Source: an uncultured Rivularia sp.
Lineage (GTDB): Bacteria > Cyanobacteriota > Cyanobacteriia > Cyanobacteriales > Nostocaceae
Assembly (NCBI GenBank): GCA_963665115.1
Contig: OY762007.1
Span: forward strand, 1,216,001-1,280,000
Direction of reading: 5' to 3'
Length of the DNA: 64,000 nt
Shown: piece by piece, positions 9,942 to 57,421 of the stretch
Layout: the number at the start of each line of letters is the position of its first letter
Position numbering within the stretch: position 1 is the first letter of the stretch
Notes under the pieces: generated by a model
Databases searched by the model: none
What the model was told of the DNA's origin: nothing
Seen by the model: the letters and a program-made list of their open reading frames with translations, nothing else
Translations under genes and position numbers: made by a program

Positions 9942-10091
9942 TTATTGAGGTAAAGGATGGAAAAAAGTCCCGTATTGCAATCCAGGGAAAATGTAATTCA
10001 ATCCAACGAAAATTACAAACAGAATAATTACTGCTAAAGTCGCAACAACGGGAACGCTGGAAAGATATTTAAACAAATAACGTGATTCCAC
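9942..10091 (-). CDS. psaJ2: Photosystem I subunit IX, far-red paralog (49 aa; below the ORF-track cutoff)
   Basis: GTG start with AAGGAG upstream. Translation MESRYLFKYLSSVPVVATLAVIILFVIFVGLNYIFPGLQYGTFFHPLPQ. Lies directly after psaF2. Confidence 0.9.
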   Translation of the reverse strand: MESRYLFKYLSSVPVVATLAVIILFVIFVGLNYIFPGLQYGTFFHPLPQ

Positions 10092-10467
10092 GATCAAATT
10101 CTCCTTGTTAAATGATTGGTTTATTTACACCGTACTGTACTAGCGAATAGAAATCGGAATTTCATCATCTTTAGCAACTAATTCCCCACTTAATAATTCT
10201 TTGACAGCTAAAAGTGGCCACATTAAAGCCTTGAGCATACAACTGACGAAAAGTGCTACATCAATAAACAATTCCTTTTCTTCTCCTGCACCTTCTTTTC
10301 TAATTGCTATTAGATAAGAACGTCCGCTCCAACCTATCCAACCTGCAATATATAAGAACATCGTAATCGGAGCCATTACATCAAATGCAAGGTTCAAACG
10401 ATCGAGAACTAAATGTGGTAAACCATCCTCACCACAAAGTAACTGAGAATAAGCCTGAAATGGCTTA

Positions 10468-11639
10468 AGTAGGTCGGCATGAAAAAACCAAAGTATGTAA
10501 AGATAAGTAAATACGGAAAATGCATCTACCGAGGTTATTGAAATATGGGCGCTCGTTTAAGGGTGTTTCTGACTCGTGAGCAAGACAAAGACTTGCTAAA
10601 CCTAAGAACAAAAGACGTACCAAACAAAGTAAAAGACCGAGCAGAAGTAATTAGATTAAATGCACATGGTTGGTATGTTGAAAAAATAGCAGATCATTTC
10701 GGGTGGACTGCACAAACAGTAAGAGACATTTTACATAAATGGCAGAAAGAAGGATATAGCGGACTTTGGGATAAACCCGGCAGGGGAGGTAAGACGAAGT
10801 ATAAAGAAGAAGACATTATATATCTGGAAGAATGCCTCAAAAAAGAACCACGCACATACAATAGTCTTCAATTAGCCCAAAAATTAGAAGGCGATCGCCA
10901 GGTTAAGTTGAGTCCCGATAGATTAAGAAGGGTACTCAAAAAAAGGGGGTCATTTGGAAAAGAACAAGAAAAAGCCACAAAGAAAAGCAAGACCCAATCT
11001 TCAAAGAAATCAAGCAAGCAGACCTAGATATGTTAGAACTATCTGCGGCTGCTGGGGAAATAGATTTAAAGTATTTAGATGAATCTGGTTTCTGTATGTG
11101 GAGTGAACCAAACTACACATATTACCAGATCGGTGAACAGAAGCGCTTAGAGCAAACTAAGCGTCGTGGTCGTAGATTAAGTATTATAGGGCTTTTACAA
11201 CCCCTAGTTAGCTTTGTATATGGTTTAGTTATTGGTGGTGTTAATCGCTTTTCTTACATCCATATGATGGAACAAGAAGCGGCTGAGGCTCAAAGAAGCG
11301 GACGCATGAGAGTTATAGTACAGGACAACGGTCCAATACACCGATGCAAGGAAGTTCAGCAGTTATGGTCTAAGTGGGAAAGTCAAGGTTTGTATATCTT
11401 CTTTTTGCCTAAATATTGTTCTGAGATGAACCCAATTGAATTGGAATGGCAGCATCTCAAGAAAGATGAACTTTCTGGACAAATGTTTGATGACGAATTA
11501 GACCTTGCTTATGCCGTAATAGATGGAGTTCAAGTTAGAGGAGAAAGAGGTAACTACAAGACACAGCGTGTTAGATTTAACTCCAACACGACATCTTAAC
11601 TTTTCGTTACATAGTTATAAATTTCCCCGCCGACCTACT
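10468..11639 (+). mobile_element. IS630-family element (1172 bp)
   Basis: 11-bp perfect terminal IRs AGTAGGTCGGC/GCCGACCTACT. TA target duplication at 10466-10467 and 11640-11641. Confidence 0.95.
10545..11599 (+). CDS. IS630 transposase (OrfA HTH + OrfB DDE), probably joined by a programmed -1 frameshift
   Basis: OrfA 10545..11027. OrfB carries [15 protein letters not shown] and [14 protein letters not shown]. Slippery A7G5 at 10938-10949; the -1 frame reads [10 protein letters not shown] into OrfB. Confidence 0.9.
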
Positions 11640-11827
11640 TAGTAGTGTAATAACTATCAGGCGCATTTTGCATCCGTTCTATAAATGCCGGAGAATCTTT
11701 ACAAGGTACCAGTGTAGTGTTCTCTGCCAATGCAGTAGGAATAAAATTAATCCAGAAAAAGCTTGCAAGTAGTAGTGCGAAAAATATTCTTTTCATAGTT
11801 TTATCCTTTGTTATTAATTGTCAATTT

Positions 11828-12097: not shown

Positions 12098-13627
12098 TTA
12101 AACTGTCTGCTTTTTACGAGTACTCATGTCGCCCACTTTCTGGAACACACCAAACTCAACTTGTTCCTCTATATCAGCGTCAATTCCAGCAAAGACATCT
12201 CGGTATAAGGTGCGTGAACCATGCCAGATATGTCCGAAGAACCACAGCAAGCCCCAAACAGTATGAGCAAAAGCAAACCATCCACGGGTACTTGTACGAA
12301 ATATCCCATCGGAATTGAGAGTTTCACTATCAAATTCAAAAATTTCACCCAGTTGAGCGCGACGAGCAAATGGTTTTACATCAATTGGATCTGTAAAAGT
12401 TTGACCGTTAAGTTCGCCACCGTAGAAGCTAACAGTTGTACCAGTCTGCTCAAAGCTGAATTTGGATTCTGCTCGTCGGAAAGGTATATCTGCACGTACA
12501 ACATCATCTTTATCAGTCAACACTACAGGAAAGGTTTCAAAGAAGTTAGGCATCCGTCGTACCGTCAATTCTCTACCTTCTCCGTCTTTAAATACTGGAT
12601 GACCGGACCAACCTTGAGCAATACCATCTCCATTGTTCATTGCTCCTACTCGGAATAAACCACCCTTAGCTGGACTATTACCAACATAGTCGTAAAAAGC
12701 TAACTTATCTGGAATAGTTGACCAAGCTTGTGAAAGTGTTTTACCACTAGCCAAACTGGTTTGCACTTGTCGATTAATCGCATTTTGGAAATAACCGTTG
12801 TCCCATTGGTAACGAGTCGGGCCAAACAGTTCAATCGGAGTTGTGGCGCTACCGTACCACATTGTCCCAGAAACAATAAAAGCTGCAAAAAAGAATGTTG
12901 CTAAAGCGCTGCCAAGAACAGTTTCGATATTACCCATTCTTAAAGCCCTGTAGAGTACCTCCGGAGGACGAAAAGCTATATGGAAAATACCGCCGATAAT
13001 ACCAACAATCCCCGCAGCAATGTGGTGAGCTACAACACCACCAGGATTAAACGGATTAAAACCTTCGGCTCCCCATACAGGAGCCACACCCTGGACATGA
13101 CCAGTTAATCCGTAGGGATCAGAAACCCACATCCCCGGACCAAATACACCTGTTAAATGGAAAGCACCAAAACCAAAACAAAGAAGACCTGCACAGAACA
13201 AATGAATCCCGAATATTCTTGGTAAATCGAGAACTGGTTGATTATTTTTGCTATCTTGAAATAAATCCAAATCCCAATAAACCCAGTGCCAACAAGCTGC
13301 TAAAAATAACAAACCTGACAAAATAATATGAGCAGCCGCGACACTTTCAAAAGTCCACAAGCTAAAATCTGTTACAGGTGCGCCCGTAATACTCCAACCA
13401 CGCCAAGATTCCGTAACACCCAATCGAGCCATGAAAGGCAATACATACATACCCTGTCGCCACATCGGGTCGAAAACTGGGTCGCTAGGGTCAAACTTAG
13501 CTAATTCGTATAAAACCATTGACCCAGCCCAGCCAGCGGTAAGCGCCGTATGCATCAGGTGGACAGCAATAAGCCTTCCTGGGTCATTCAAAACAACTGT
13601 GTGGACGCGATACCAAGGTAGTCCCAT
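12098..13627 (-). CDS. psbB2: Photosystem II CP47, far-red paralog
   Basis: [19 protein letters not shown], 509 aa; FaRLiP context. Confidence 0.95.
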
Positions 13628-13721
13628 AAAATCATGTTCCTTATCAAAAAGTTATGAATTGTAGAGACGTAGCATTGCTACGTCTTTATGGCAGTTATGA
13701 ATTTTTGAGTTTCCTCAATTT

Positions 13722-13901
13722 TTAGAAAAAAAGTTGCAAATATGTGCCTGATATAGAATCAGGAAAAAATCTTTTTAAAAACATCACGGTGACAGAGAAA
13801 AAGGCGATCGCAATATAGCCAATTACAGGAGCAATGATGTGTTCGAGTAAAAAATCCTGAATTCGTACAACCTGAAAATTTTTACGAAACGTAAGAAGCA
13901 T
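13722..13901 (-). CDS. Small single-TM protein, divergent PsaJ-like (59 aa, not in ORF track)
   Basis: ATG with GAGGG 9 nt upstream. Translation MLLTFRKNFQVVRIQDFLLEHIIAPVIGYIAIAFFSVTVMFLKRFFPDSISGTYLQLFF. The APV...RFFPD...GT spacing matches PsaJ/PsaJ2. Confidence 0.65.
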   Translation of the reverse strand: MLLTFRKNFQVVRIQDFLLEHIIAPVIGYIAIAFFSVTVMFLKRFFPDSISGTYLQLFF

Positions 13902-13983
13902 AAACTAAAACCCTCGCAAAAGAGTAAGAATTTACCAGCTACCAGCAATGATTATTCACTGATAACTGATAATTGTTCACCGA

Positions 13984-15381
13984 TCAATCCAATGGTTTCA
14001 TCGATAACACTGGTTCATCTTCCCGTTCGATACCTCTTTCAAAACCCGCAGCAGCAGCTCTTGCGCGACCAGCGTGCCAAAGATGACCGACAAGAAACAG
14101 TAGTGAAAAAATAAAGTGAGCAGAAGCCAGCCAGGTACGAGGCCCAACAAAGTTGAAGGCATTAAGTTCAGTTGCTAGACCACCAACTGAATTTATAGAG
14201 CCGATGGGAGAATGAGTCATGTATTCGGCCGCCCGACGCTTTTGCCAAGGTTGAATATCATTCTTGAGCTTATCTATATCTAGTCCATTAGTTCCTCGTA
14301 ACGGTTCTAACCAAGGAGCTTTGACATCCCAAAAGCGCATTGTTTCAGCCCCAAAGATGATTTCTCCTGTTGGCGATCGCTGTAAATATTTACCTAAACC
14401 AGTCGGACCTTGGGATGTAGATATATTCGCTCCTAAAGCTTGGTCGCGCACTATAAAGTTGAATACTTGAGAATTGGCAGCCTCTGCAACTGTCGGGCCA
14501 TAAAACTCGCTCGGATAAGCAGTATTGTTAAACCAGATAAACATCGCAGCAATAAAAGCTTGTCCGGCTACATTACCCAAACTTTGAGAAAGATAGGCTT
14601 CACCAGACCAAATAAATACTCTATCGGTCCACTTAAAAGGTTTAGTGATAATGTGCCAAATACCACCAAGTATTAGTAAACCACCTACCCAAATATGACC
14701 GCCAACTAAATCCTCTAAGTTATCAACGCTAACAATATTACCAGCACCCCCCGTAAACGGACTAAATATGTAACCAAAAATTATTCTTGGGTCAAGAGTT
14801 GGGCTGGTAACAAGGCGCACATCACCGCCACCCGGTACCCAAGTATCATATAAACCACCCCAAAACATAGCTTTACCGACAAGTACGTAAGCCGCTAGAC
14901 CAAGGGCAATCAAATGATATCCCAGAATACTAGTAACTTTGTCCTTGTCGCTCCAATCAAAATTGAAGAAACCTGCTAGCTTTTCGGGACCTCTAATTGA
15001 GTGATAAATCCCACCAAAACCTAAAACAGCAGAGCCTATTAAATGCGTTACCGCAATAGCAAAAAATGGGAAAGTGTCTACAATTTCACCCCCATATCCT
15101 ACACCAATGCCGAGAGTGGCAATATGAGGCATTAAAATTAAGCCCTGCTCGTACATCGGCTTTTCTGGTATATAGTGAGCAACTTCAAACAACAGCATTG
15201 CTCCAGCCCAGAACGCAATTACTCCAGCATGAGCAACATGAGCGCCTAAAAAGCGACCGGATAAATTGATAAAACGGGCATTACCAGCCCACCATGCATA
15301 TCCAGTAGATGCCTCATCACGACCTTCTCTCTTTTCAGAGTTAACAGTCGTCGTGCTTGATTTTTCAAAAGGTGTTTCCAT
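13984..15381 (-). CDS. psbC2: Photosystem II CP43, far-red paralog
   Basis: [42 protein letters not shown]. Confidence 0.95.
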
Positions 15382-17170: not shown

Positions 17171-19476
17171 AATTCTCCTCTGTTTGAGTTTCAGTCACTG
17201 GTTCTTGTAACTGCGTCACTGTTTCTACAATTGGCTCTGCTGAATTTGAGTTGTTCAATTCATCTTCAGAGTTTTGCTGTTGTGTATGAGCAAGTTCTGA
17301 CCAGAAAAGCTGTTTTTGCACGTTGCGCTGTTTGGGAATAAACGCATCCAGTTCGGATGGTGATGAAATTGAGGATTTAGCTCTTAAATTTACACCTTCT
17401 ACCGATGCAGAACGGCGCATGGCGAAACCTCTGGGTGTAATATAACGCTCATAAGGAACCGTATTTTCTCCGAAAGCTTCTATGTATTCGGAACTATCAA
17501 TTATTTCGTCAATCAGAGCGTAAAATCCCTTAGTGGCGGAAATATCGTAGTAGCGATTCATTTCTTCCCGTCCATAAGTCGGACGACCTAACAAACGCCG
17601 ATGAATGTATTCAATGGCTTTAGTAATGTAGAGTTTTTCCCAATACATCCTGCGAAACCAATTAGATTTCCCTAATTGACGGATAAACTCCCGCATCGTA
17701 ATTTCGCCACCTTTGAGTTTGATTTCTGGGGTTGTTAAACGTTGACCTTGTAAAAGCTCGCGTCCAAATACCTGTCGATAAGCTCCGTTAATAACTGCTT
17801 CGGGAGAGTGTTTCGCTAAACTTATACTAAGTTCTTGTTGCTTTTTCCCATTCTTCTTTCCATTTGTGCTTTGACCATTTTGCACAGATGTATCAAATTT
17901 CTCTACATGGTCTAGCTTGATGACACCAACCGCAGAACCGCGAACTTGATAATCGCTAGCTTCAGCATGAATCAAAATCCGGCGAGTATCTTTGTTGAAA
18001 AATGCAGGTTCGGGATGAGGATTGCGGGTGTCTTGAGGAAAAACTGCACCAAACTGAATTTCTAATGGGGTCGTTTCCGCAACCGTAAGGATGTTGATTG
18101 GGTAGAGGTTTTTCATATTTACCAAACAGGGTTACAAACTGAGGAACTTTGCGAACGGGAGCGCTATATTTGAATAAATCAATTTGCGGACCCCAGTTGC
18201 GACATTCCTGAGCTTCTTGACCCAAACCGCGCAAATACGGTACTGTTTCCTCACCAAAGTAATCGGAGTATTCCTGAGAATCCACTAAAGTATCTACTAA
18301 TTTAGGTAAACCACCTTTAGTAATAACCGCAAAATATTCTTGGAACTCCGATAAAGAACTCAAACCGCGACCTAGAAAGTGACGCATCGCCAATTCTATA
18401 ACGCGAGCGATTGAATAAGGCTCATAAAAAAGCGTCAGGTAGAGCCGAGATTTACCCAACCTGCGGACAAACTCCTTCATCGAGATTTGTCCACCCTTGA
18501 GCTTCGATTCTATTTCAGTACCGGGAAAAGCATATATTGCAGTAATATCGCGTTCAAAAACTTGACGATAAGCAGCTTTAATTGCGTCTCGCTTTTCTGT
18601 TTCCGATAGCACCGACTTCATCATGAATTTTGGTCGATTTTCGGCCGCGATCGCATAACTCTGAGGTAGCACCAAACCCTGTTGCTCGTTGGAAACCCCA
18701 ATTCTCAGTCTGTCTGAGGGCTTTTCTTCTAAATACTCAGAAATCAATATATCAAAATAATACTTGACAATATTGCTTGCTTCAGTATTATCTTGCAAAA
18801 AGCTCGCCGATTGTCTTCGCATTTCTTTGAGCGCAACAACGGTAGCTTCCGTGACATCTTCTGGAATAACTCCGCGCAATCCTCGGACGTTAACTGTGAG
18901 AATACTAGCATCACCAGCAACAACTGCATAAGTAATATAGCGCAAGAACCAGGATAAGTCCCGCATAGACCTTTTCATTCTTTTTGGTCCGTAGCGAGAG
19001 ATATTGATGAAACGAAAACCTCCCGGAAGTGGATCTCTATCGCTATAAAGGGTTCGGATTTGTTGCCACCAAGCTTTAAAAGGAGCAGAAATCTTAGGAG
19101 CTTGTATTGATTCGAGACGCTCCTTAACAGCAACAACGCGATTTCTTCTTGCCGCAGTCAGATAATCTTCACCAACAAAATATCCCGAACCCGGTAATCC
19201 TAGCAGTTCTTTGGGCTTTTCCAGATAATCCATTGGCGAACCACCAACGAAAATACGGTTTGCTCCAGCAGAGACAATTTCCGAGGCCTTATTAGTTAAA
19301 GTTATTGCAATTTCTAACCGCAACTCACCAGAACTAAAAAACGATCCTAGTTGTTGAAGTTCAGTGTTTCTCAAATAACGGTCTTGTTGTTCCGTCTGAG
19401 AAATAACTGAGGTAGGTAAACTTTGATATTGTTGTGGACGGATAACTGGACTACCACCACTTACTTTTACACTCAT
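17142..19476 (-). CDS. apcE2: Far-red core-membrane linker; apparent frameshift at ~18068
   Basis: Diagnostic VIPEDV motif, and KRSMRD in place of the chromophore-binding Cys; two linker repeats. Removing one base of the G4 run at 18067-18070 restores CGNDPLEIQFG. Confidence 0.92.
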
Positions 19477-27857: not shown

Positions 27858-28901
27858 TTACAAGACAAACTCTTCCGTAACCACAGCATCTTGATAAATG
27901 GCTTCCACTTTAAACTGTTTACCAGCAGCTTCGCTAAATGCTAACTGAATAATTTGGTCGGATTCTCTAGCAATCGCCGATTCACTTTCTGGTTCATCAG
28001 TATTATAATTCAGCGTTACTTTCAGTTGCAAACCTTGTGGTAAACAATATTCATTTTGAGAACGAATTTGTGCAAGTACACCTATCTCTTGATTTTCTTC
28101 AAGTCTCATATTAATTGTTAATGCAAAGCGCTGATTATTTAGTAATAATCCAAAGTCAAATAATTTACCCCTTCTAACTGCAAAATCAGATGACTGAGTA
28201 TTTCTTCTGGTTGCACTTGCATAACTAAGATTAGGCATTTGTGGTGTTAAAATATTTTCAATAGATTGCCAACTTTCTTCAAATAATCCACTCCACCATT
28301 GAGAAAGATTAACAAGGGATTGAGTAACTTTGTGAGGAATATTTTCTGCTGATTTAGGTAAAGGAATAGCTTCTATTTCCAGAAAGCGAATATATAAGAA
28401 TAAATTGTTCACTTCACTATCAAAGCTAGAAAGCGGAATTTTACAAATCTCAGAGTTTTGACTTGGAGATAATTCATCATGTCGTATTATTCCATGAATT
28501 GTTAACTGTTCGGCTTCTTCTAAAATTTCAACTAATACATAGAAGTGAGCAGCAAGTTGTGGTGATATGATATTTTCTTGATGAATAGAAACTAAATTGT
28601 CATAAAGACTATCTACAGTAATTAGTTGAACCTTAAATTCACCAACTTGTAAATTAACGTTCTTCTGTTGAGAATCTGCATCGAGTTGCTTAACTTCGAT
28701 ATCTGGGATTTGTTCTTGTAACCATTCTTCAAAACCGAATAAAGCTAGTTGATTTAAATAAACTCTCCATTGATTTTTCTCACCATCAATATTTTGACTA
28801 ATATTGATAGCTTTCTCATAATGTTCTGGTTCTAAACAAGCAATCCTTGGTTTAATTCGTTGGCTAAAATCTTGTTCTGCTTGTAAGGATAATCTAGTCA
28901 T
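27858..28901 (-). CDS. DUF1822-family protein
   Basis: WRVYLNQLALFGFEEWL, AAHFYVLVEILEE, VNLSQWWSGLFEESWQ, LPQGLQL, EEFVL. Confidence 0.8.
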   Translation of the reverse strand: MTRLSLQAEQDFSQRIKPRIACLEPEHYEKAINISQNIDGEKNQWRVYLNQLALFGFEEWLQEQIPDIEVKQLDADSQQKNVNLQVGEFKVQLITVDSLYDNLVSIHQENIISPQLAAHFYVLVEILEEAEQLTIHGIIRHDELSPSQNSEICKIPLSSFDSEVNNLFLYIRFLEIEAIPLPKSAENIPHKVTQSLVNLSQWWSGLFEESWQSIENILTPQMPNLSYASATRRNTQSSDFAVRRGKLFDFGLLLNNQRFALTINMRLEENQEIGVLAQIRSQNEYCLPQGLQLKVTLNYNTDEPESESAIARESDQIIQLAFSEAAGKQFKVEAIYQDAVVTEEFVL

Positions 28902-28924
28902 GGTGTTTTTATATATGATTATTT

Positions 28925-30496
28925 TTATGCTGCGTTTCTTTTCTGATTGATATACTCTCGCAATCTTTGAGCAAATAAGCTATTTTTATAAAGGCTCCTT
29001 GATGCTGTAATTTCTGCATAAGCTTCTTTAAATGCTATTTCATACAAAAAATTTCTTACCTGTTGTGCTATATCTCGTAAATTATTCGGGTTGCAAGATA
29101 CTTCCTCCGTAAAAAATTTGCTAGCTTTTTCTTGAATTTGTTCTATGAAACTCTTCTCGGAAAAAGACTGAACATTTTCAATTAGTTCGCTCAATTGAAA
29201 TATACGTCTGGCTTTTGCCCAATTTGTTTTCCATAATTGTGCAATTTCTTTCAAACTCAAAGGATTATTTGTTTGGTAATAGAGTTGTAATCCTTGGATA
29301 AATTTTGGAGCATAGGCAGAATAATTCTTTTTTTTAGATAAAAATACCACTCGTTGAGGAATGATTGATGAAATTGCGTTAAATAATATTTTATTTGGTA
29401 ATTTATTCAAAAGTTCTCGTAATTCAATCTCTTCTATATATTCGCAGTTAAGATTTTTAATATAAGACGCATTCGGATTAAAATCAGAATTATTATTATC
29501 TTTATCTATAGAACCAGCTTTAGGACTTCCTATCCTGGTAGAATACTCATCTTGACGTAATATTTCTGCAATTTTTTGAAAACTTTGAATCAACTCATGA
29601 ACAGAACTAAGTATAATGTCTTTATCCTGTAATAAATCAAGCATTTCTTCTAACTGTGGGTGTGTTGGTTCGGAACACCTACCCCTTTGATGAAATTTTC
29701 GTCTATCTCTTCTATAAACTGCATGAAAAACTTTTATTAATTGATGTTCCTTATTAGTGAAATGAGTATCGAGCGATTGAGGGACTTCTCTACATAATAA
29801 AGACCAATCGCTAGAAATCCAAATTCCAAGCTCTAATAAAAATATTTGTAAGTTCTTATTTTGTCTAATACATCTGATACACCAATTATCTAAACTTTCA
29901 CTATTCTTGTTACTAGATAAATTTGGATTGTAAGTTCTTAAAATATCGACACTAAAAAAATTTCCTTCTCTAGGTATTGATTGAGTAGAACCATTTTTAT
30001 TAAAAATTAGTTGAGTTTTATCATCGCAGTCCATAACAATGAAGGTACTACCGTCATCGTTGAGAACGTATGATAACAAGTCTGGTAATAATGTATAATT
30101 ATTGGGACTTTTGTTCGCGAGTATTTGACAACCTTTAATAATAGCGTGAGATAAATAGCATCTTAAACAAAGCCCTGCCTCAGCACGTTTTTTACCATCA
30201 AGATTAACATCATGGAATATTTTCCACAGATGTACTTGAACATATTGATTTTCTGCCTTAGATAAATTTGTTTGACTACTTAATTGTGGTAATTCATCTC
30301 TAAAAAACTCTTTTGCTAAAGTTGATTGTTTCTCTCTATAACAAGAAGTCAGTTTACCATCTTTATCAAAAGGATTAGCGATAATGCACATTGTCCAATA
30401 TCTTGATGTATTTGTATCCATATTTTTGTTGTTCATCGGAATTAGTTCATAAGTTCTCATATTGAGATTTGCGATAAAAACGGGATTGGTAAACAA
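28925..30496 (-). CDS. Large sigma-70-like / HTH protein paired with DUF1822
   Basis: AGLCLRCYLS, SDWSLL, FHAVYRRDR, C-terminal HTH LSLKEIAQLW...ARRI. Paralog at 59703..61175. True start may be an internal ATG. Confidence 0.6.
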   Translation of the reverse strand: MFTNPVFIANLNMRTYELIPMNNKNMDTNTSRYWTMCIIANPFDKDGKLTSCYREKQSTLAKEFFRDELPQLSSQTNLSKAENQYVQVHLWKIFHDVNLDGKKRAEAGLCLRCYLSHAIIKGCQILANKSPNNYTLLPDLLSYVLNDDGSTFIVMDCDDKTQLIFNKNGSTQSIPREGNFFSVDILRTYNPNLSSNKNSESLDNWCIRCIRQNKNLQIFLLELGIWISSDWSLLCREVPQSLDTHFTNKEHQLIKVFHAVYRRDRRKFHQRGRCSEPTHPQLEEMLDLLQDKDIILSSVHELIQSFQKIAEILRQDEYSTRIGSPKAGSIDKDNNNSDFNPNASYIKNLNCEYIEEIELRELLNKLPNKILFNAISSIIPQRVVFLSKKKNYSAYAPKFIQGLQLYYQTNNPLSLKEIAQLWKTNWAKARRIFQLSELIENVQSFSEKSFIEQIQEKASKFFTEEVSCNPNNLRDIAQQVRNFLYEIAFKEAYAEITASRSLYKNSLFAQRLREYINQKRNAA

Positions 30497-30733
30497 AATC
30501 TGTCATGCTTTGTCCAGTCGAGCTTACATCTATATATAGATTGGGGATTTTTTACCTATACATTTTTCTTGGAATCTCCTTGTCATCTATCTAATGGTTG
30601 ATTATTTAACAAAAACTTTCACATAACATTAGGTAACATTTTTTACACAAAAAGTAATATTTTTATGGCACATCAAATAACATCATATAGTCAATAAGGA
30701 TACACAGGATATTACAACCATAAGGAACTGATA

Positions 30734-33700
30734 ATGCAGGTACTGGTGAATCTAAGGTTTCATGATGGTGATTTTCAGCATGGATTTGAGAAAACTACCC
30801 TTAGTGGGATTGTAACTGGTAGTCAAAATTCTACAGAACTAGAAACTCGACTACCCCCTGCACCTTTAATCCCTGGTTTGTATCAAAGTTGGCAGGAGAA
30901 ATACTGTGAGTTAGTGGAAACTCGCGTCAGAAAAATTGTACCCAAAGAACTGATAACCACAAGAGGTTTTAGTAAACAACAATCTACTAATTTCTCTTAT
31001 TACGAGTGTCAGCAGAATTGCAATCAATATGCTGAAGATTTGCGTACTCAAATTAATCAATGGCTGGCTGCAATTAAGTCACAATTAGAAACTGATTTTA
31101 AGTTAGATACAAATTCAGAAATTTTATTAACTATCAATACTGAAAATATTACATCCCAATTTACAAAGGATATTTTACATCGTTTACCTTGGCGGGAATG
31201 GGATTATTTTAATCGTTGTTCTGGTTTTGAAATCGCTTTGTGCTTGAGCAAATTTCAGTCAAATTCCACCAAAATTGTTGACGATGGGATATTTAGAAGA
31301 GTTAGGATTACTAGTATATTTGGTGATAGCACAGATATCGATATTGCTGGCGATCGCCAATTAATCGCAAAACTCCAAAAGCGGGGAGCAGAATTAATAA
31401 ATCTTGAGCAACCACAACGTCAAGATTTTATTAAATTATGGGATGAACCTTGCGATATTTTATTTTATAGCGGTCATAGTGAAAGTAGTATTGATGGTAC
31501 TCTTGGTTCGCTACAAATTAGTAGTACGGAAAGTTTAAGTTTACAGGAAATTAGAAATACTTTTCAAGAAGCTATTAGAAAAGGTTTAAAGTTAGCGATA
31601 TTTAATTCCTGCGATGGTTTGGGTTTAGCTAAGCAATTAGCAGATTTACATTTGCCTTATATTATAGTTTGGCGCGAACCCGTACCAGATAAAATAGCTC
31701 AAAAGTTTCTGGAGTATTTTCTCAGTTCTTATGCTGAAGGTAAATCTTTATTTAACTCGGTGCGAGATGCCAGAATTAAGCTGGTTGAATTAACAAATAG
31801 TGCTGAAAAAGAAAATCTTATTCCGGGATTGGAATGGTTGCCGATTATCTGTAAAAATACAACTGATGCTCCTCCGACTTGGGAAGATTTGGGAGGACTT
31901 ACGGGTAAACTTCCTGACTGCCCTTATCAGGGTTTATCCGCATTTAGGGAAGAAGATAAGGAATTCTTTTTTGGTCGGGATGATGTAATTGCAGACTTAG
32001 TAGAAGTTGTTAATAGTAAATCTTTTATTCCCGTTATTGGTGCTTCTGGTAGTGGGAAATCTTCTGTGGTATTCGCGGGATTGGTTCCGCAATTGAGGAA
32101 TGTTGGTAACGTACAGATTGTATCCTTTCGTCCGGGAAAGAATCCTTTTGATGCTTTGACTGTAGCATTAAGTCGAATTCAAAATGTTGAACTAAACAAT
32201 AACCGATTGCAAGAATTGGAATTAGAAATCAACTTGGAACATGATGAGAAAGCATTATGCGAGTTGATTGAACACTTGAATGACCTAACCCCCCAGCCCC
32301 CTTCCCTGCGAGGGAAGGGGGAGAAATTAAAGCCCCTCTCCTCACAGGAGAGAGGTTTGGAGAGAGGTTTCCCCCCAACGCTTCGTACTAATAGCCGACC
32401 AATTTGAAGAACTTTACACCTTAACTGAAGATTCCCTGCGTCAATCTTTCCTTGATTTATTACTTTATACAGTACAGAATACTCCCCTCTTTAGTTTGGT
32501 ATTGACGCTCAGGGCTGATTTTATGGGGAAAGTGCTGGATTATCAACCGATGGGTGAAGCTTTTCAAAAGTATCCCCCGGTGTTGCTGACTCCCATGAAA
32601 CCCGAAGAATTACAAGCAGCGATCGCACAACCAGCAGCGAAATTGAAGGTGGAGTTAGAGCAGGGGTTGACAAGTAAGTTAATTGATGATTTAGGCAATC
32701 AACCCGGACGTTTACCTTTATTAGAGTTTACCTTGTCGCTGCTGTGGGAGAAACACGATAAATGGTATCTTACACACAAGGCTTATGCAGAAATTGGTGG
32801 TTTAGAAAAGGCTTTAGCGAAATATGCGGATGGTGTTTTGAATCCGTTATCCGCTGTTGATAAAGAAAAAGCCGAACGCATATTTATTCAGCTAATTCGT
32901 CCGGGGGAAGGTACGGAAGATACTAAGCGTAAAGCTACCTGTGGAGAAGTTGGGGAAGATAATTGGGATTTGGTGGAGTTTTTAGCGAATAAGCGTTTGG
33001 TGGTGACTGGTTGGGATGAAAGCAGTCAACAGCAAACGGTAGAGATTGTTCACGAAGCTTTGATTCGGGAATGGGGAATGTTGCGGGAGTGGATACACAG
33101 CAATCGTAGGTTCCGGATTTGGCAGGAGCGATTACAATTTGAATTAGTGAAATGGGAAGACAAGAAGCGCGATCGCGATTATTTATTAAACGGTGGTGGT
33201 TTAGGTGAAGCGGAAGCTTGGTTAAATGATCGTAAATATCGGAAGTATTTGAGTGATTCGCAACGGGAGTTTATTCGGGAGAGTTTGGAGAAGCAGGATA
33301 AGGAAGAAAAGGAAAAAGTAAGGTTACAAAGACGTGCGATTAAATGGCTTTCTGGTGGTTTGGTTGCAGCTTCCTTGGCTACTGGGTTTGCTGGTTGGAA
33401 TTGGGTGAAAGCAGAGGTAAGCGCGACAACAAGCAAAATTAATAGTTTCAAAGTGAATTCAGAATATCTTTTTGGTTCGCAGCAGTATGAAAGTGCATTA
33501 ATAGAAGGTATAAAAGGGAATGAATTATTAGAAAATACCTGGTTGCAAAGATGGATACCAAATGATTCAAAAAGGGAAGTTAAATTAGCTCTGTATAATG
33601 CTATTCATAATTCTATATTAGAAAAAAGCACTATTACTACTGGAAAGAAACCCGTTATAAGCTTGGAATATAGTCCGAATGGTAATATTATTGCTTTCAC

Positions 33701-36700
33701 GTCAGAGAATACAATCAAATTATGGTCTGCTGAAAATGGTCAATTACTTCATACTTTATCTGGACATAAAGATAGGGTTTTAACTGTAAAATTTAGCCCA
33801 GATGGAAAAACTATTGCTACCGCATCATTTGATGGAACAGCTAAATTATGGTCTGCTGAAAATGGTCAATTACTTCATACTTTATCTGGACATAAAGATA
33901 AGGTTTTAAATGTAAAATTTAGCCCAGATGGAAAAACTATTGCTACCGCATCAGAGGATAATACAGTCAAAGTGTGGTCATTTGATGGTAAGTTAGTAGA
34001 TACTTTATCTGAACATAAAGATGGAGTTTTAAATGTAGAATTTAGCCCAGATGGTACAACTATTGCTACCGCATCATTTGATGGAACAGCTAAATTATGG
34101 TCTGCTGAAAATGGTCAATTACTTCATACTTTATCTGGACATAAAGATAAGGTTTTAAATATAGAATTTAGCCCAGATGGTACAACTATTGCTACCGCAT
34201 CAGAGGATAATACAGTCAAAGTGTGGTCAATTAATCGTAGATTACTCTACACTCTATCAGGGAATAACGTGAAGTTTAGCCCGGATAGTAAAATTATTGC
34301 TACTGCTTCAAGAGATGATGGAACAGCCAAATTATGGTCAATTAATGATGGTAAATTACTCCACACTTTATCTGGACGTAGCGTAGAATTTAATCCGGTT
34401 GGTAAAACTATTGCTACCAGATCATTTGATAATACAGTGAAATTGTGGTCATTTGATGGCAAGTTACTGCATACTTGGTCTGGATATAACGTCAAATTTA
34501 GCCCAAATGGTAAAACTATTGCTACTGCTTCACTAGATGATGGAACAGCCAAATTATGGTCAATTAATGATGGTAAATTACTCCACACTTTATCAGGAGA
34601 TAGGGTTAAATTCAGCCCAAATGGTAAAACTATTGCTACCGTATCATTTGATAATACAGTATTGTGGCTAAGAAAATTATCGTCAATAAAATTATGGTCA
34701 ATCGATGGTAGATTACTCCACACTTTACCAGGAAATAGCGTAGAATTTAGCCCCGATAGTAAAACTATTGCCACAATTTCAAGGGATAATAGAATTAATA
34801 AAACTACAGTGAAATTGTGGTCAATCGATGGTAAATTACTCCACACTTTACCAGGAAATAACCATACTTTACCAGGAAATAATGTTACATTTAGCCCCGA
34901 TAGTAAAACTATTGCCACAATTTCAAGCGATTATGGAATCAATAACCATACAGTGAAATTATGGTCAATCAATGGTAGATTACTTCACACCTTATCAGGA
35001 AATAATGTTAATTTTAGCCCTGATAGTAAAACTATTGCTTCTTCAAAAGATGGAAAAGTAGAATTTTGGTCAATTGATGGTCAATTTCTCTACACTTTAT
35101 CAGGATATAATGTTAAATTTAGCCCGGATAGTAAAACTATTGCTACCACATCATCTAGTAAAATAAATTTGTGGTCAATTGATGGTAAATTTCTCCATAC
35201 TCTATTAGGGAATTCATCAAGAAATGATGTTAAATTTAGCCCGGATAGTAAAACTATTGCTACCATTTCAAGGAATAACGATATATTCAGTAATACAGTG
35301 AAATTATGGTCTATTAATGGTAGATTTCTCTACAAGTTATCCGCAAATAGCGTGGAATTTAGCCCAGACAGTAAAACTATTGCTACTTCATCATTTAGTA
35401 AAATAAAATTGTGGTCAATCGATGGTAGATTACTCAACACTTTATCAGGAAATGGCGGAGAATTTAGCCCTGATAGTAAAACTATTGCTACAATTTCAAG
35501 CGATAATAGAATTAATAAAACTACAGTTAAATTGTGGTCAATTGATGGTAAATTCCTCCAAGATTTATCAGGGAATACCGTAGAATTTAGCCCGGATGGT
35601 AAAACTATTGCTTCCGTTTCAGACAATCATATAGTAAAATTATGGAATTGGAATTTTGATAATTTACTAAGTCAAGGTTGTAAGAAACTTGAAGGTTACT
35701 TAATTAACCGTCCAGATAAACTTAAAGAACTTAAAGTTTGTCAAAACCCAGAAATATTAATCGCAGCTGCTTCTACTTTAGTAAGACAAGGTGAGGATTT
35801 AGCTAAAAATGGTGATTCTGCAAGAGTTGTGGCGATGTTTCGTCAAGCTCAAGAATGGAATCCTAAATTAAATATTAACCCAGAGATAAAAGCAAAGGCA
35901 CGATATTTGGTTACTTTAGGTAGAGATTTGGCGAGAAATGGCGATTTTGAAGATGCAATAGAAAAGTTGGAAAAAGCAAAGCAGCTTGATGTTAATATTG
36001 ACCTTGATCCACAAACTGAAGAATTAGATAATAACCCCTCGTCAGTAGCAGGAGAGCTTACAGCCCGATATTTAGTTAGTCAAAGTAGATTTGCGAGAAA
36101 TGGCAATTTTGAAGATATGCTAAAAAAGTTAGAAAAAGCAAAGCAGCTTGATGCAAATATTGACCTTAATCCATTCACTAAAAAATTAGATAACAACCCT
36201 TCTTCAGTAGTAAGAGAGCTTAGAGCAGCATTTATGGTTCGCGAAGGATTAGATTTAATACAAAAAGGTGATTTTAAAGCTGCTATCGCAAAGTTAGAAA
36301 AAGCACAACAGCTTGATGCAAATATCGACTTTAATCCACAAACTAGAGAATTAGATAATAGTCCCCCTGAAGCATTAGTAAAAGAGTTTAAAGCAGCATC
36401 TATTGTTCGCGAAGGAGGAGCATTAATACAAAAGGATAATTTAAAAGGTGCTATAGAAAAGTTTAAAGAAGCACAACAATTTTATCCAGATATTGACCTC
36501 AATCCATTAACTAAAAAATTAGATAACAATCCGAAACTAGCAGCTAGAGAACTTACAGCAATATTTCTTGTCCGCAAAGGAGAACAATTAGTTAGAAAAG
36601 GTGATTTAGAAGGTGCTGTAGAAAAATTTAAAAAAGCACAGCAATTCGATGTAAATATTGATCTAAATCCACGAACTAAAGAATTGGATACTAATCCTGA

Positions 36701-36803
36701 TACAACAGTTCTAGAATTTTTTAAAAATGGACAAAGATTAACGCCACCAATCTCAAACGACTCGTTAATTCCACCACCGCCACCATTGCTACCATCTTTT
36801 TAA
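30734..36803 (+). CDS. CHAT - STAND (nSTAND1-type) NTPase - TM - WD40 - TPR-like protein; apparent frameshift at ~32373
   Basis: FYSGHS and FNSCDGLG (CHAT dyad); CPYQGLSAF; Walker A GASGSGKSS. Walker B VLIADQFEELY is restored by removing one C. LPLLEF, many WD40 repeats and five ~60-aa C-terminal repeats follow. Confidence 0.85.
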
Positions 36804-44035: not shown

Positions 44036-46404
44036 ATGACAATAACTCCAGAGCGAGAGCAAAAAGTAAAGGTAGTAGTTGACAAAGATCCGGTGCCTAC
44101 TTCTTTTGAGAAGTGGTCGAAACCAGGACACTTCGATCGCTCTCTTACTAGAGGTCCTAAAACCACAACTTGGATTTGGAATCTGCACGCCCTGGCTCAT
44201 GATTTCGATACTCATACCAGTGACTTGGAAGATGTATCTCGCAAAATCTTCGCTGCTCACTTTGGACATTTAGCAGTGATTTTCATCTGGTTGAGCGGGA
44301 TGTATTATCACGGGGCAAGGTTTTCCAATTTTGAATCTTGGATGACTAACCCCACTGGAATTAAACCAAGCGCTCAAATAGTCTGGCCAATATTTGGTCA
44401 AGATATTTTGAATGCCGATATGGGTGATGGCTTCCACGGTATTCAAATTACTTCTGGACTTTTCCAATTGTGGCGGGGTGCTGGATTTACTAATACTTTC
44501 CAGCTTTACTGCACGGCAATTGGAGCGTTAGTAATGGCAGCACTAATGCTGTTTGCTGGCTGGTTCCACTATCACAAACGCGCTCCTAAACTGGAATGGT
44601 TTCAGAATGTGGAGTCGATGTTAAATCACCACTTAGCTGGACTTCTAGGTTTAGGTTCGTTGGGTTGGTGCGGACACCTGATTCATGTTTCTTTACCCAC
44701 TAACAAGCTGTTGGATGCTGGGGTGGCTCTTAAGGATATTCCTTTACCTCACGAGTTCATTTTGAATTCCAGTTTAATGGGAAGATTATATCCCAGTGTT
44801 AATTGGGGTTTTATGAGTGGAGTAGTACCATTTTTTACTCTGAATTGGGATCGATACAAAGACTTTCTGACATTCAACGGCGGTCTAAACCCTACTACTG
44901 GTGGCTTGTGGTTAACAGATATAGCGCACCATCACCTAGCTATAGCTGTAATGTTTATTTTTGCGGGTCATATGTACCGCACTAACTGGGGCATTGGTCA
45001 TAACATCAAGCTTATGCTCGATGACCTGAGAAGTCCTAATATGCTGCCATTTTTGAGCTTTATTGGTCCTAGAGGTCATAAAGGTCTTTATGAAGTCCTG
45101 ACAACTTCCTGGCACGCTCAACTATCAGTCAATTTGGCGATGATGGGTTCTCTGAGTATGATCGTTGCCCATCATATGTATGCAATGCCGCCCTATCCTT
45201 ACCTGGCAACAGACTATGCCACAGTTTTATCTTTGTTCACTCACCATATATGGATTGGAGGTTTTCTGATAGTCGGTGCTGCGGCTCATGGTGCGATTTA
45301 TATGGTGCGCGACTACGACCCAGAAGTTAATTATAATAACGTACTCGATCGCGTAATTCGACACCGAGACGCAATTGTTTCTCACCTAGCTTGGGTGTGT
45401 CAATTCCTCGGCTTTCACAGCTTTGCAATGTATTGTCACAACGACACAATGCGGGCTTTTGGTCGTCCCCAGGATATGTTTTCGGATACGGGAATTCAAT
45501 TACAGCCCGTTTTTGCTCAGTGGATACAGCATATTCACACAATGGCAATTGGAAATCTAGGATTGCAAGCGGCTACACCTTTAGGCAATATGTTTGGGGG
45601 CTTAAGCAATTTACAAACCTCTGGACTGGGAATGACGGCTCCAAGTTTACACGAGCCTGTTAGCTATGCCTTTGGAGGCGGTATTCTTGCAGTGGCTGGT
45701 AAAGTGGCAATGATGCCTATTCCTCTGGGAACGGCTGATTTCTTAATTCACCACATCCATGCTTTTACAATTCACGTCACGGTACTAGTTCTGCTCAAGG
45801 GTGTACTATTTGCTCGCAGTTCCCGCTTAATTCCAGATAAAGCAAACCTCGGTTTCCGCTTCCCTTGCGATGGGGCCCTGGTCGTGGCGGTACTTGTCAG
45901 GTATCTGCTTGGGACCATGTATTCTTAGGACTGTTCTGGATGTATAATTCCCTGTCGATGGTAATTTTCCACTTCTTTTGGAAGATGCAGTCGGATGTCT
46001 GGGGGACGGTTGATGGTAATGGGGTAGTTACTCACATTACTGGTGGAAACTTTGCGATGTCATCGATTACGAATAACGGCTGGTTGCGGGACTTTCTCTG
46101 GGCGCAATCTTCCCAAGTAATCAATTCCTACAATAGTGCGCTTTCTGGATACGGGTTAATGTTCTTAGCCGGACACTTCGTTTTTGGCTTCAGTTTGATG
46201 TTCCTATTTAGCGGTCGTGGCTACTGGCAAGAACTGATTGAATCCATTGTTTGGGCGCACAACAAGTTAAAAATTACCACAGCGATTCAGCCCCGTGCTT
46301 TGAGCATTGTTCAAGGTCGGGCTGTGGGTGCTGCTCACTATCTCTTGGGAGGAATTGTTACTACTTGGGCATTCTTCCTAGCACGAATGAGCGCACTTGG
46401 TTGA
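44036..46404 (+). CDS. psaA2: Photosystem I PsaA, far-red paralog; apparent frameshift at ~45873
   Basis: Start MTITPERE after AAGGAG; lumenal insertion [14 protein letters not shown].... The FX motif [12 protein letters not shown] is restored by removing two bases in GGGGCCC. Confidence 0.93.
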
Positions 46405-53711: not shown

Positions 53712-56507
53712 TTAAAGCCAATTCCCAACTAAGACATAAGGTGCCCAAATCAACGGCGGTTCACTATTCTTTAAAAGTTTAATTTGGGCTTGCTGTAAAG
53801 CTTTTGCTTTGTTCGATTTATGCTGTTGTAATTCTCGGTAAAATTGACTCATCAATTGAGCAGTAGATTTATCTTCAACAGCCCATAAGCTAGCTAAAGT
53901 ACTCCTGGCACCCGCACTAATAGCAATCCCAGAAAGCCCTAAAGTTGCTCTTTTATCTCCATTAGCGGTTTCGCAAGCACTAAGTACTAATAACTCAATA
54001 GCTTGAGAATCTGCATTTTTATTAATCTGAAATAATTTATCGAAGTCTTCAAGTTTTAATAGTTTGTTCCACGTCAAAATATAGGTTTCTTCTGAGTTTG
54101 AACTAAAATTACCGTGGGTAGCAATATGAACTATGGTATATTTGGCTGAATCAATTTGCTTTTCTAAGTTGACATCGGTGAAGGATCGATCGATCAGTTT
54201 TTTACTTTTAGGTATTTGTAACCTAATTGTATCCAACTCAAGCTGCACGTTATTGAGAGGATTAAATTCTTGATTATTAATTATTCGCTTTTCGGTGACT
54301 CCAGCCATCAGAATATTTAATTCTTTTCTTTTTAACGGTTTTGGCTCCAGCATTTGCAAACCTGGAGTTAAAACAATGGCATATTTTTCGATTAAATATT
54401 TTGGCTGTTTTTCTTGCGCTTTACTATCGTATAATACCGCCATTGGAATATTTCTTAAGTTGCCATCTAAGACAAATACCAATGTTTCTATTTTGTTTTG
54501 TTCTAAATCAGCTTCTAATGGTTGAATTAACCAACTATATATCTTTCCAGAGATTTGATTTACTTTCTTAATTTGTTCTGGTTGTCTGAGACTGTATTGT
54601 AGTTTTTCTAAGGTGTTTTCAAGTTCATTCGCTTTAAGAAAAGTGGTGTAACGATTAAATTTATCTTGATTGGGAAGTTTGAGAATTATTTCGAGACGGT
54701 TTTGTAAAATAATTGGGTAAATAACTGCTGCTGCGGTATCAGTGTTATCAACTACTGTATCAATAATTTCAGGTTTAGCCTGCAAGCAAACTTCCTGAAA
54801 GTAATTTTCTATTTCCCTTAATTGTAGAGCTTCAATCACATCGCGGGCTTTTTTTAAGTTGTTGCTAACTAAGTTTTGTTTACTCAAACTTTTTGTAGTT
54901 ACATTCTGAGATGGTGACTGTAAAAGTAAATCAACGAGTTGTCTATAAACTGGCTCTACTTTATCTCGAAATGAATATTGTATATCTGAATTGAGTACGA
55001 GCAAATCACCACGCAAATCGTTTAAATTCTCTACCGCTTGAGAATAATATTCTATTGCTGAGGTAGTGTTTTGTTCAAGTTTGAATATATATCCTAATTG
55101 CCATTGCCAAAGATAAGCTATATCTTGAGCTTCTATTCTCAAGGCTAAGTCAACAGCTTTTTTAGTTAGTTTACCAGCGGAATTCAAATTTTGGGTTTGT
55201 AAGTATACGCTACCAAGAGTACCCATTGCATAAGATTGCAATCTTGTATCTTCCAAGGTTTCCGCTTGTTTAATCGATAAAGCTAAAATTTTGGCTATCT
55301 TTTCCCATTCCGGTACATTGCTCGGACTTACTTGTTTTAATAATAATAGATTTTGTGCTAAATTAATCCGAGCCTTAAGTGATGTGTTAGATACGGGCAA
55401 TGTATTGATAGTTGGTTGCAATTCAGAGAATAATTTGCCAGCTTTGGAAAATTCTTCAAGTTCTATTAATACACTAAATTTATTTAATTGGGCTTTAACT
55501 TTGATTGCGGGTGATGTCGATACAGCTACAGTTTTATCGTAGTTTTCTAAGGCTTGCTGATATAATTTTCTTGTTTCTTCAGATATCGGTTTACTCACAT
55601 AAACTAACGGCGAAGTTTGCTCAAATATTGTTGCGTTTTGTAAAAGCGACTGCTCTTTATTTCCCTTTGCACGTTGAGCGTTACCCAAACTCAGCAAAGT
55701 TTGAGCGATTTGAGGATTAGATTTAATTTCTTGAGCGGTTTGATAGCTTTGCTGTAAAATTTTTAAGGAGGCTTCAATTTCCCCTAAATGTAATTGAACG
55801 TCACCAAAACTGCGTAATGCTGTTACTTTAAGAACGGAGGCTGGCTGTTGATTTAATTCGGGAAGCACTTGTTCTAAAGTTTTCAGAGCTAGGTGATAAC
55901 GTCCTAAAGCTTGTAATGCCAGACTTTGATTGATTAAACTCCGAATTTTTGCATTATTGAAATCACCTCGTTCGTAGATAGCAGTAGCTTTTTTCCAGTT
56001 TTCTAGAGCTAATAAGGGTTTTCCTAACGTTAACTGGATGTTAGCTTGAATATCTAAAACTTGAGCAAATACTTTTAATCTTTCCTTGTCATCATCAATA
56101 TTTAATTTATTTTCTAATAATTGACGGCTTTGGATAATGTACTTCAGAGCTTGCTGATATTCACTAATTTGCTTGTAAGCGTTGGAAATATTGCTGAGTG
56201 CGATCGCCTGTTTAATTGGATTACTTTGATTTTGAAAAGTTAGCGCTGCTTGCTCTAAAATAGATATCGCTTCTGAAAACCTTTGTGCATCATAAAGTTT
56301 TTTACCTTTTTCCAATAAATCTTCTGTATTTATCTGATTTTGACTAATTTGAGCCAGATAAGCTGGATTAAAATTACTTTGTGTGAAATTATTTTGAGCA
56401 TCAGCTTTCGGTAGCGAAACAGGAATTAAAATTGATTCGCAAACAAAAGTGAATATACCTGCTAAAACAAATAAAATTATTTTTGAAAGCCATCTTTTAT
56501 ATTGCAT
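53712..56507 (-). CDS. TPR + CHAT domain protein
   Basis: Signal peptide, TPRs, HIATHGNFS, LSACETA, WAPYVLVGNWL. Confidence 0.9.
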   Translation of the reverse strand: MQYKRWLSKIILFVLAGIFTFVCESILIPVSLPKADAQNNFTQSNFNPAYLAQISQNQINTEDLLEKGKKLYDAQRFSEAISILEQAALTFQNQSNPIKQAIALSNISNAYKQISEYQQALKYIIQSRQLLENKLNIDDDKERLKVFAQVLDIQANIQLTLGKPLLALENWKKATAIYERGDFNNAKIRSLINQSLALQALGRYHLALKTLEQVLPELNQQPASVLKVTALRSFGDVQLHLGEIEASLKILQQSYQTAQEIKSNPQIAQTLLSLGNAQRAKGNKEQSLLQNATIFEQTSPLVYVSKPISEETRKLYQQALENYDKTVAVSTSPAIKVKAQLNKFSVLIELEEFSKAGKLFSELQPTINTLPVSNTSLKARINLAQNLLLLKQVSPSNVPEWEKIAKILALSIKQAETLEDTRLQSYAMGTLGSVYLQTQNLNSAGKLTKKAVDLALRIEAQDIAYLWQWQLGYIFKLEQNTTSAIEYYSQAVENLNDLRGDLLVLNSDIQYSFRDKVEPVYRQLVDLLLQSPSQNVTTKSLSKQNLVSNNLKKARDVIEALQLREIENYFQEVCLQAKPEIIDTVVDNTDTAAAVIYPIILQNRLEIILKLPNQDKFNRYTTFLKANELENTLEKLQYSLRQPEQIKKVNQISGKIYSWLIQPLEADLEQNKIETLVFVLDGNLRNIPMAVLYDSKAQEKQPKYLIEKYAIVLTPGLQMLEPKPLKRKELNILMAGVTEKRIINNQEFNPLNNVQLELDTIRLQIPKSKKLIDRSFTDVNLEKQIDSAKYTIVHIATHGNFSSNSEETYILTWNKLLKLEDFDKLFQINKNADSQAIELLVLSACETANGDKRATLGLSGIAISAGARSTLASLWAVEDKSTAQLMSQFYRELQQHKSNKAKALQQAQIKLLKNSEPPLIWAPYVLVGNWL

Positions 56508-56707
56508 ATTTTTTTACTGAACAACACTTAAATTATTAAAATTGTATTGCTAAAATTTGCACGCTTTCATATTGCTTGAGACGTAGTAATGCTACGTCTC
56601 TACATTTGATATTATGTTTACCGCAAAATTAATTGGCTTGACTCACCGAAGCAACTTGAGATTTTTGCTTTATTGTTTCAATTTATTTAAATACTATTTA
56701 GCATAGC

Positions 56708-56926
56708 TTAAAAACGTCTGTGGGGACAAAAGATAGTAAAATAAATCGATGGTTCAACCCAATCTGTGATATGAATGTATTCATTTTCATCTATAAATCT
56801 ATCCGTTTCAGGTGATTCTAGAAATTGAATATTATTAGTTGTCTCTCGCTCAAGAAGATGTTTGAACCCAGTTAAACGATTTAACCTGGACAATATATAA
56901 GAGAAAGGATTTTGTAAATATTTCAT
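56708..56926 (-). CDS. Small hypothetical protein
   Basis: 72-aa ORF preceded by the CTGCATAA-N17-CTAT motif. Confidence 0.55.
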   Translation of the reverse strand: MKYLQNPFSYILSRLNRLTGFKHLLERETTNNIQFLESPETDRFIDENEYIHITDWVEPSIYFTIFCPHRRF

Positions 56927-57421
56927 AATGAGTGTTTATATCTAACGCTTAAAGTTTGACTACGAATATATAGGAGCCAGTTCGATCTAATTATGCAGTT
57001 TGGATCGAAATGCTAATAATTAACTTTCTAACAATCGGTATATCACGAACTGTACTTATTAATTGCGATTAGGAACTTGATTACAAATCTTAATGAATAA
57101 ATGTTAATAAAACAGATAATTTTTGGATAATCTGCATAAATTAGCAAAAGCTTCCCCTATAGGATAAATAGAATAAACTCGCACCTTTTAACGGGAGGTA
57201 GAAGTCAAAAAAATTTATGCATTATCAATTAAAAATTCAAAATTACCATTACCTAAAGTTTGAGGCTTGAAGCAAGGAATATGCTTTTATCTTTTTCTCC
57301 TCAATTAAACAATTAAAAAATAATTATTTTTTAATTTTTAATGCGGGCATTTTTAATTTTGAATTAAAAAAATGGTCAAATGCACCATATTATGTACTGA
57401 AGAATAAAAATTAACTTCCGA

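Follow-up and report, generated by a model that had tools for sequence, protein, structure and literature searches.

Gene X and its place in the far-red cluster

The window, by which we mean the whole stretch of 64,000 nucleotides that was analysed, carries a far-red light photoacclimation (FaRLiP) cluster in which psbA3, five apc genes, psbD3, psbC2, psbB2, psaF2 and psaJ2 lie on the minus strand and rfpBAC on the plus strand, with chlF-psaA2-psaB2-psaL2-psaI2 farther along (gene names are assignments by sequence and synteny). A first-pass annotation had reported a 59-codon minus-strand ORF between psbC2 and psbB2, with a GAGGG ribosome-binding site, that aligns without gaps to the PsaJ2 of the window. 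The frame, here called gene X, was confirmed at 13722-13901 (Table 1), the motif is present 9 nt ahead of its ATG, and in the ungapped alignment PV, FP and GT are all in register at a low identity of 9/46 positions. The ancestral X protein has 46 residues; its ATG has become ATT in this strain (codon 14, window position 13862), and translation would start at an ATG 13 codons upstream, which is common to the genus.

Table 1. Positions of gene X, its parts and its neighbours in the window.
Feature	Position	Strand	Remarks
Gene X, putative PsaJ2-related small membrane protein	13722-13901	-	59 codons plus stop in this strain
GAGGG, ribosome-binding-site-like	13911-13915	-	9 nt upstream of the X ATG
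Conserved 46-codon core of X	13725-13862	-	first codon ATT; ATG in many orthologs
Hydrophobic stretch of X, predicted single transmembrane helix	13767-13838	-	ends ahead of FFP; from sequence
ISGTY of X	13740-13754	-	aligns in register with QYGTF, the far-red insertion of five residues in PsaJ2; Ser replaces Tyr40
psbC2, upstream neighbour of X	13984-15381	-	
psbB2, downstream neighbour of X	12098-13627	-	
psaJ2, sister paralog of X	9942-10097	-	
psaF2, split by an insertion element	10140-11796	-	halves 11635-11796 and 10140-10463

No plus-strand ORF of at least 30 amino acids runs across the X locus; the antisense in-register frame of X also gives a low dN/dS, its third positions being in common with those of X. 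Scanning 13500-14100 for promoters and terminators returned one site of each kind, not above shuffles. The far-red cluster of the window strain itself looks damaged, with X intact in it, and the functional case for X rests on relatives, not on the window strain.

Conservation and purifying selection

A search for X in 301 genomes of the host's family gave 50 matches at E ≤ 0.1, and the 30 with E ≤ 0.003 were examined. The 20 family-genome matches with E > 0.01 were dismissed as noise, as were eight matches in small genomes, most of them lying in long unrelated frames or carrying stops. X orthologs are thus present in 30 of the 301 genomes, within the order psbC2-X-psbB2 in 26 of the loci and directly ahead of psaF2 in four. 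A scan of named genomes, overlapping partly with the 301-genome set, yielded 27 X loci, with Fischerella thermalis PCC 7521, Chlorogloeopsis fritschii PCC 6912, Mastigocoleus, Rivularia, Calothrix, Nostoc and Aulosira among the carriers; in all 27, X stands ahead of psbB2 or psaF2 and a separate psaJ2 follows psaF2. Wherever databases name the protein, it is called "hypothetical".

A motif survey covered 47 X loci, one per genome, of which 46 match the tail motif. The full frame and start are present in 44 of these 46 (two Fischerella-type copies are frameshifted), and the stop falls exactly 12 residues past the Pro in 43. The proposal of a second PsaJ-like gene had been made to depend, among other things, on a conserved open frame in relatives, and the frame is indeed kept, with a pairwise dN/dS of 0.09-0.27 in seven groupings against at least 0.70 for shifted-frame controls; one set of three full Nostoc loci, with very few changes, gave 1.18. 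Codon changes are concentrated at third positions. The tail is the best-conserved part of the protein, with residues invariant across four families, whereas the helix is variable and has lost four residues in five copies. Judged by these patterns, X is a real conserved gene in four cyanobacterial lineages.

Relationship to PsaJ2

The sole Pfam match of the window X is PSI_PsaJ (PF01701; E 5.5e-4), at 20.8 bits against a cut-off of 22.4. In the host genome X ranks third of nine matches to the PsaJ model, after psaJ1 and psaJ2 and ahead of the next at 14.7 bits; the ortholog in G675 reaches 23.5 bits, above the cut-off, and 10 of 25 aligned X members match PF01701 at E ≤ 0.01, with no matches to other families. 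Comparison of the X and PsaJ2 profiles gave a probability of 95.8% (E 6.6e-9, 42 columns). When the X profile was compared with the PDB, chains J of 7S3D, 6PNJ/7LX0 and 9EYS/9I9L ranked as the best three matches; each carries a PsaJ2 tail of the GLQYGT type, and this search returned no PDB chain that is X itself. In a tree calculated from 25 X, 18 PsaJ2 and 11 white-light PsaJ sequences, aligned over 46 columns with anchors set by hand, X forms one clade (85/98) that joins PsaJ2 (92/96) against the white-light proteins, and with the X model PsaJ2 reaches a median of 26 bits and PsaJ1 one of 7 bits.

Because the tree is short and rooted on the divergent PsaJ1, a shared insertion is the better evidence of ancestry. 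Residues 39-43 of PsaJ2 are an insertion specific to the far-red form (available text of PMC10694217), and X has an insertion of the same five-residue length, with the Pro+12 tail in 43/46 loci and GT[YH] in register; in the alignment the tail measures Pro+12 in 23/25 X sequences, Pro+12-13 in PsaJ2 and Pro+6-8 in PsaJ1. X has one predicted membrane helix ending in F/Y-P, with a PV motif 22 residues earlier in ungapped register, and an AlphaFold model of a Fischerella ortholog places a helix at residues 2-32 (mean pLDDT 75), followed by a short C-terminal helix of low confidence.

Tyr40 of PsaJ2 donates a hydrogen bond to the formyl group of chlorophyll f B30, and Glu28 and His39 are the chlorophyll ligands of white-light PsaJ (as given in the available text of PMC10694217 and PMC7002129 for the former and of PMC7002129 for the latter). 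At the Tyr40 position Tyr occurs in 0/46 X loci, and the residue there is polar and small throughout (S 30, D 11, Q 2, T 2, N 1); the Glu28 and His39 columns hold neither Glu nor His in all 25 aligned X sequences. The terminal His is missing from X, as had been noted before. The His that had been pointed out ahead of the helix fared worse: just 3 of the 44 loci of scorable length have it, which rules it out as a conserved ligand. It was rejected as a pigment contact, and X shows neither a conserved His nor any other evident pigment ligand.

PsaJ2 of far-red PSI resembles X in several ways: both belong to the FaRLiP gene set and have 46-48 residues, one helix that terminates in FP, an insertion of five residues, GT[FY] and a stop 12 residues past the Pro. 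X differs in having only about 27% mean identity to PsaJ2, in lacking Tyr40 and His45, in lying ahead of psbB2 and not after psaF2, in coexisting with an intact psaJ2 and in not having been detected in the searched genomes of other orders. White-light PsaJ (PsaJ1; PF01701) is in register with X between the N-terminal PV and FP, and X matches its Pfam family weakly, but it shares about 20% identity with X, which has the far-red insertion and not the Glu28 and His39 ligands. Conservation, dN/dS, profile matches and the tree all agree with the first-pass proposal of a further PsaJ paralog, divergent and located within the far-red operon, and they support X as a diverged sister of PsaJ2 that derives from the PsaJ2 lineage specifically.

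The recently described subunit PsbH2' was rejected as an identity for X on position and sequence. It lies right after psbH2 and never occurs without it (available text of PMC13396731); the window has no psbH2, and the single psbH match of the host genome is elsewhere. Both X and PsbH2' are present as separate ORFs in G871, and the X profile misses the ORFs after psbB2. Like X, PsbH2' and the optional genes psbH2, psbF2, psbO2, psbV2 and rfpD are small, lineage-restricted members of the cluster that were long hypothetical (available text of bioRxiv 2024.05.15.594131 and PMC9325196), but X precedes psbB2 and occurs in genomes without psbH2. An Fst/PepA1 toxin was likewise rejected (NF033608, 13.9 bits against a cut-off of 26, E 0.037), since the match covers the hydrophobic stretch only. 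Foldseek with the single-helix model gave no match and the ESM Atlas no usable one, and neither outcome is informative.

The published FaRLiP inventory counts 19 core genes and six optional ones, psbH2, psbH2', psbO2, psbV2, psbF2 and rfpD (available text of bioRxiv 2024.05.15.594131). A second psaJ-like gene of these clusters is not described in the available portions of the literature, including PMC4390838, PMC6424891, PMC10694217, PMC7002129, PMC8689207, PMC8827656, PMC9325196, PMC11424453, PMC12924786 and bioRxiv 2024.08.06.606606, and a term search of three supplementary files of PMC13396731 gave no match; the supplements of bioRxiv 2024.05.15.594131, the main supplement of PMC13396731, figures and subscription papers might still mark the ORF as hypothetical. 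X is thus apparently an undescribed sister gene of psaJ2, which adds a seemingly overlooked member to a heavily studied cluster with published inventories, and strains that have served for far-red structures and transcriptomes carry it.

Distribution and origin

Within the 301 family genomes psaJ2 is present in 34, including 29 of the 30 X carriers, and the thirtieth carrier has a split psaJ2; of the five genomes with psaJ2 only, two run into contig edges and the clusters of the other three are decayed. In the Pleurocapsales family 14 of 61 genomes match, 12 of them with X and two (G681 and G657) through psaJ2 only. All 12 of these loci have the order psbD3-X-psbB2 (psbC2 and psbD3 being swapped), and most have a clear GGAG/AGAGG ribosome site ahead of the orthologous ATG. 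X was found in one of 41 genomes of a further family (f2) and, between psbC2 and psbB2, in four of the five matching genomes among 28 of another (f5), where one X protein has the same sequence as a Chroococcidiopsis cubana protein annotated as hypothetical. X lies directly ahead of psbB2 in 4/4 Chroococcidiopsis-type loci and in G382. Five genomes of other orders that carry psaJ2 gave no X, and in four of them the psbC2-psbB2 spacer, of 49-208 nt, does not contain it. An exhaustive search with the X profile returned 14 representatives, of which the four previously unseen ones are X-like and none belongs to another family, and a metagenome scan with one distant X member added one locus. We infer from this distribution that X arose once, after the branching of the earliest FaRLiP lineages, the sample outside the order being small.

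Gene loss and rearrangement

X is directly ahead of psaF2-psaJ2, with no psbB2 between, in 7 of the 27 named loci (Nostoc, Aulosira), and a chlF-type D1 paralog lies just upstream in six of these seven reduced loci, that is, in every one with visible upstream DNA. Three genomes that are 99-100% complete (G211, G004, G284) keep psaB2 (88-89%), have no psbC2 and only one psbB, whereas the full-cluster control genome has both psbC2 and a second psbB; G284 carries frameshifts in psaB2 and psaJ2. A single dead apcA2 remnant is common to four reduced loci and has diverged among them by 3-11%, with gaps, and X in the same four loci shows 0-1 non-synonymous change in about 92 sites. For the most distant of these pairs about 6.5 changes would be expected in X (P about 0.01).

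A second line of evidence is the split cluster of G026, in which the PSII half has a 104-nt psbC2-psbB2 spacer with no X, and X lies just ahead of psaF2 in the PSI half, together with psaF2-psaJ2, chlF and psaA2/B2. Four assessable genomes with psaJ2 and no X (G272, G186, G298, G882) have no intact psaB2, their clusters being decayed overall. Intact clusters hold X ahead of psbB2 even where psaF2-psaJ2 is over 1 Mb away (G871).

Since PSI-only clusters keep X and X moved with the PSI half in G026, X is likely tied to PSI despite its address in a PSII operon. The first-pass annotation had left the choice between a PSI and a PSII role open, and the gene-loss patterns favour the former and speak against the latter. 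The reduced clusters are close kin with about two origins, the whole gene-loss case amounts to roughly three events, and retention with PSI does not single out PSI because the reduced clusters also keep chlF and rfp genes.

Expression and published far-red structures

The X ortholog of Chlorogloeopsis lies under RNA-library contigs in three of four runs of unspecified light regime; contigs by themselves are no proof of a transcript. In X3 and X4 one contig each spans X and psbB2 (depth 1667 and 605), in X1 the cover of X is thin, and X19 has none. Translation of X is suggested by selection only.

Far-red PSI of F. thermalis PCC 7521, which carries X (L062), has been modelled with PsaJ2 (available text of PMC7002129), and the paper on far-red PSII structure, with the X-encoding strain Calothrix NIES-3974 (P0020) among its subjects, names in its available text only PsbH2' as a new subunit (PMC13396731). 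PsaJ2 itself was missed in proteomics for want of tryptic peptides (available text of PMC8827656), so that non-detection of X by this means would be uninformative. In Leptolyngbya-like strains PsaF2/PsaJ2 is loosely bound, and likewise in white light (available text of PMC8689207); this fits the apparent lack of X in that lineage and was not counted, given the looseness in white light.

Possible role of gene X

The reading that we put first, with about even confidence, is that the X product binds at the PsaJ site of far-red PSI, or next to it, as a temporary or minority partner and holds the PsaF2/PsaB2 edge without gripping chlorophyll f B30. X would have originated by duplication of psaJ2 after the earliest FaRLiP lineages had split, and would be translated from the apc-psb transcript in far-red light; its lumenal tail would be the working part and its helix mainly an anchor, and it would act while PSI is assembled or loaded with chlorophyll f, before PsaJ2 takes over the site. 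A transient or minority partner is favoured from the modelling of PCC 7521 PSI with PsaJ2 and from PsbH2' being the only new subunit named in far-red PSII. Against the PSI reading stand the intact clusters with X ahead of psbB2 and the FaRLiP clusters of other orders that do without it.

More tentatively, X may be a dedicated assembly factor of far-red PSI, a mimic of PsaJ2 that keeps the B30 site open for chlorophyll f to be loaded and is then swapped for PsaJ2. If this is true, no factor for inserting chlorophyll f at a specific site would have been named before X, and the engineering of far-red PSI would gain a part that it now lacks. A sister of PsaJ2 that lacks exactly the residue contacting chlorophyll f is a cheap and direct knockout target in Chlorogloeopsis or Fischerella; X may also matter for the transfer of far-red photosynthesis to other hosts.

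Somewhat less probable is a role of X in chlorophyll f supply, either as an accessory of the ChlF synthase complex or as a shuttle between ChlF/CP47 modules and the photosystems. There is a CP47-containing chlorophyll f synthase complex, with which the fixed place of X ahead of psbB2 (CP47) would fit, and the chlF-type paralog upstream in six of seven reduced loci and the common half of chlF and X in G026 point the same way; such a role would explain why X is absent from purified photosystems. Yet X keeps the length, register and GT[YF] tail of PsaJ2, which points to a PSI-type binding site, is without a conserved His or any comparable candidate for a pigment ligand, and is missing from lineages that carry FaRLiP clusters. 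The supply role keeps its share of probability because the gene-loss case is roughly three events among kin and chlF was retained with X.

Recruitment of X to far-red PSII, as a subunit or assembly factor of the CP47 (PsbB2) module, we regard as unlikely. It would account for the position directly ahead of psbB2 in 26/30 family, 12/12 Pleurocapsales and 4/4 Chroococcidiopsis-type loci and in G382, and for RNA-library contigs that span both genes, but X is intact where psbB2 and psbC2 are gone, has left the PSII half in G026 and is not among the new subunits named in the available text of PMC13396731, even though Calothrix NIES-3974 encodes it. More doubtful again is that X serves as an alternative, stably bound PsaJ and so distinguishes a subpopulation of PSI that has chlorophyll a, not f, at B30, tuning far-red absorption in mixed light: the small and polar residue in 46/46 loci at the position of Tyr40, which bonds chlorophyll f B30 (available text of PMC10694217 and PMC7002129), speaks for it, but the far-red PSI literature, in its available portions, reports no second J-site population, and the helix is strongly divergent, with four residues lost in five copies. 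Finally, the short gene, its variable start, two frameshifted copies and the want of protein evidence would suit a leftover psaJ2 duplicate with an inert peptide, a mere translational coupler or RNA element for psbB2, which the low dN/dS with changes concentrated at third positions, the tail residues invariant across four families and the retention of X without psbB2 make very improbable.

Further observations on far-red clusters

Many Pleurocapsa-type X orthologs (L104-L111; P0038-P0079) have 68-71 residues and a conserved MSNLFKYK start, with an acidic linker inserted ahead of the helix. The PSI-only far-red clusters of Nostoc and Aulosira (L045, L047, L049, L053, L055, L056; G211:C215, G004:C27) consist of psaA2/B2/L2/I2, rfpABC, chlF, X and psaF2/J2, without far-red PSII or allophycocyanin genes, and so form the counterpart of the PSI-reduced cluster of Chroococcidiopsis CCMEE 010, in which psaF2/J2 are kept and psaA2/B2/L2/I2 are lacking (available text of PMC11424453); FaRLiP clusters that are only partial are mentioned in the available text of an evolution preprint (bioRxiv 2024.05.15.594131). 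In G871 (C1:2503000-2512000) and G882 (C8:243000-252000) psaF2-psaJ2 directly follows a psaB of white-light-level identity, far from the main cluster, and G882 keeps this psaB-psaF2-psaJ2 unit without psbC2, psaB2 or X. The cluster of G272:C3 (L094), of the same genus as the window, is collapsing: psbD3 is gone, and one deletion apparently runs from just past the X start to the last 19 codons of psbB2. A divergent white-light-type psaJ without the far-red insertion is present in G073:C1:5108401-5108508 (L127), besides psaJ1, psaJ2 and X.

In the window itself psbH2 is missing from the cluster. The insertion in psaF2 (10140-11796) is a single-copy element, which we take to be of the IS630 type, with two transposase-like ORFs (10545-11027, 11030-11599), and a stop codon comes after the insertion point. 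Both apcE2 (about 18022-18068) and psaA2 (about 45865-45928) run in two reading frames, through either sequencing errors or decay of the strain's far-red cluster. Between rfpC and chlF the cluster is interrupted by about 15 kb of unrelated genes (27858-36803), presumably WD40/TPR-type and AAA-like ORFs, and a paralogous block resembling them recurs near 53.7-61.2 kb (53712-61175).
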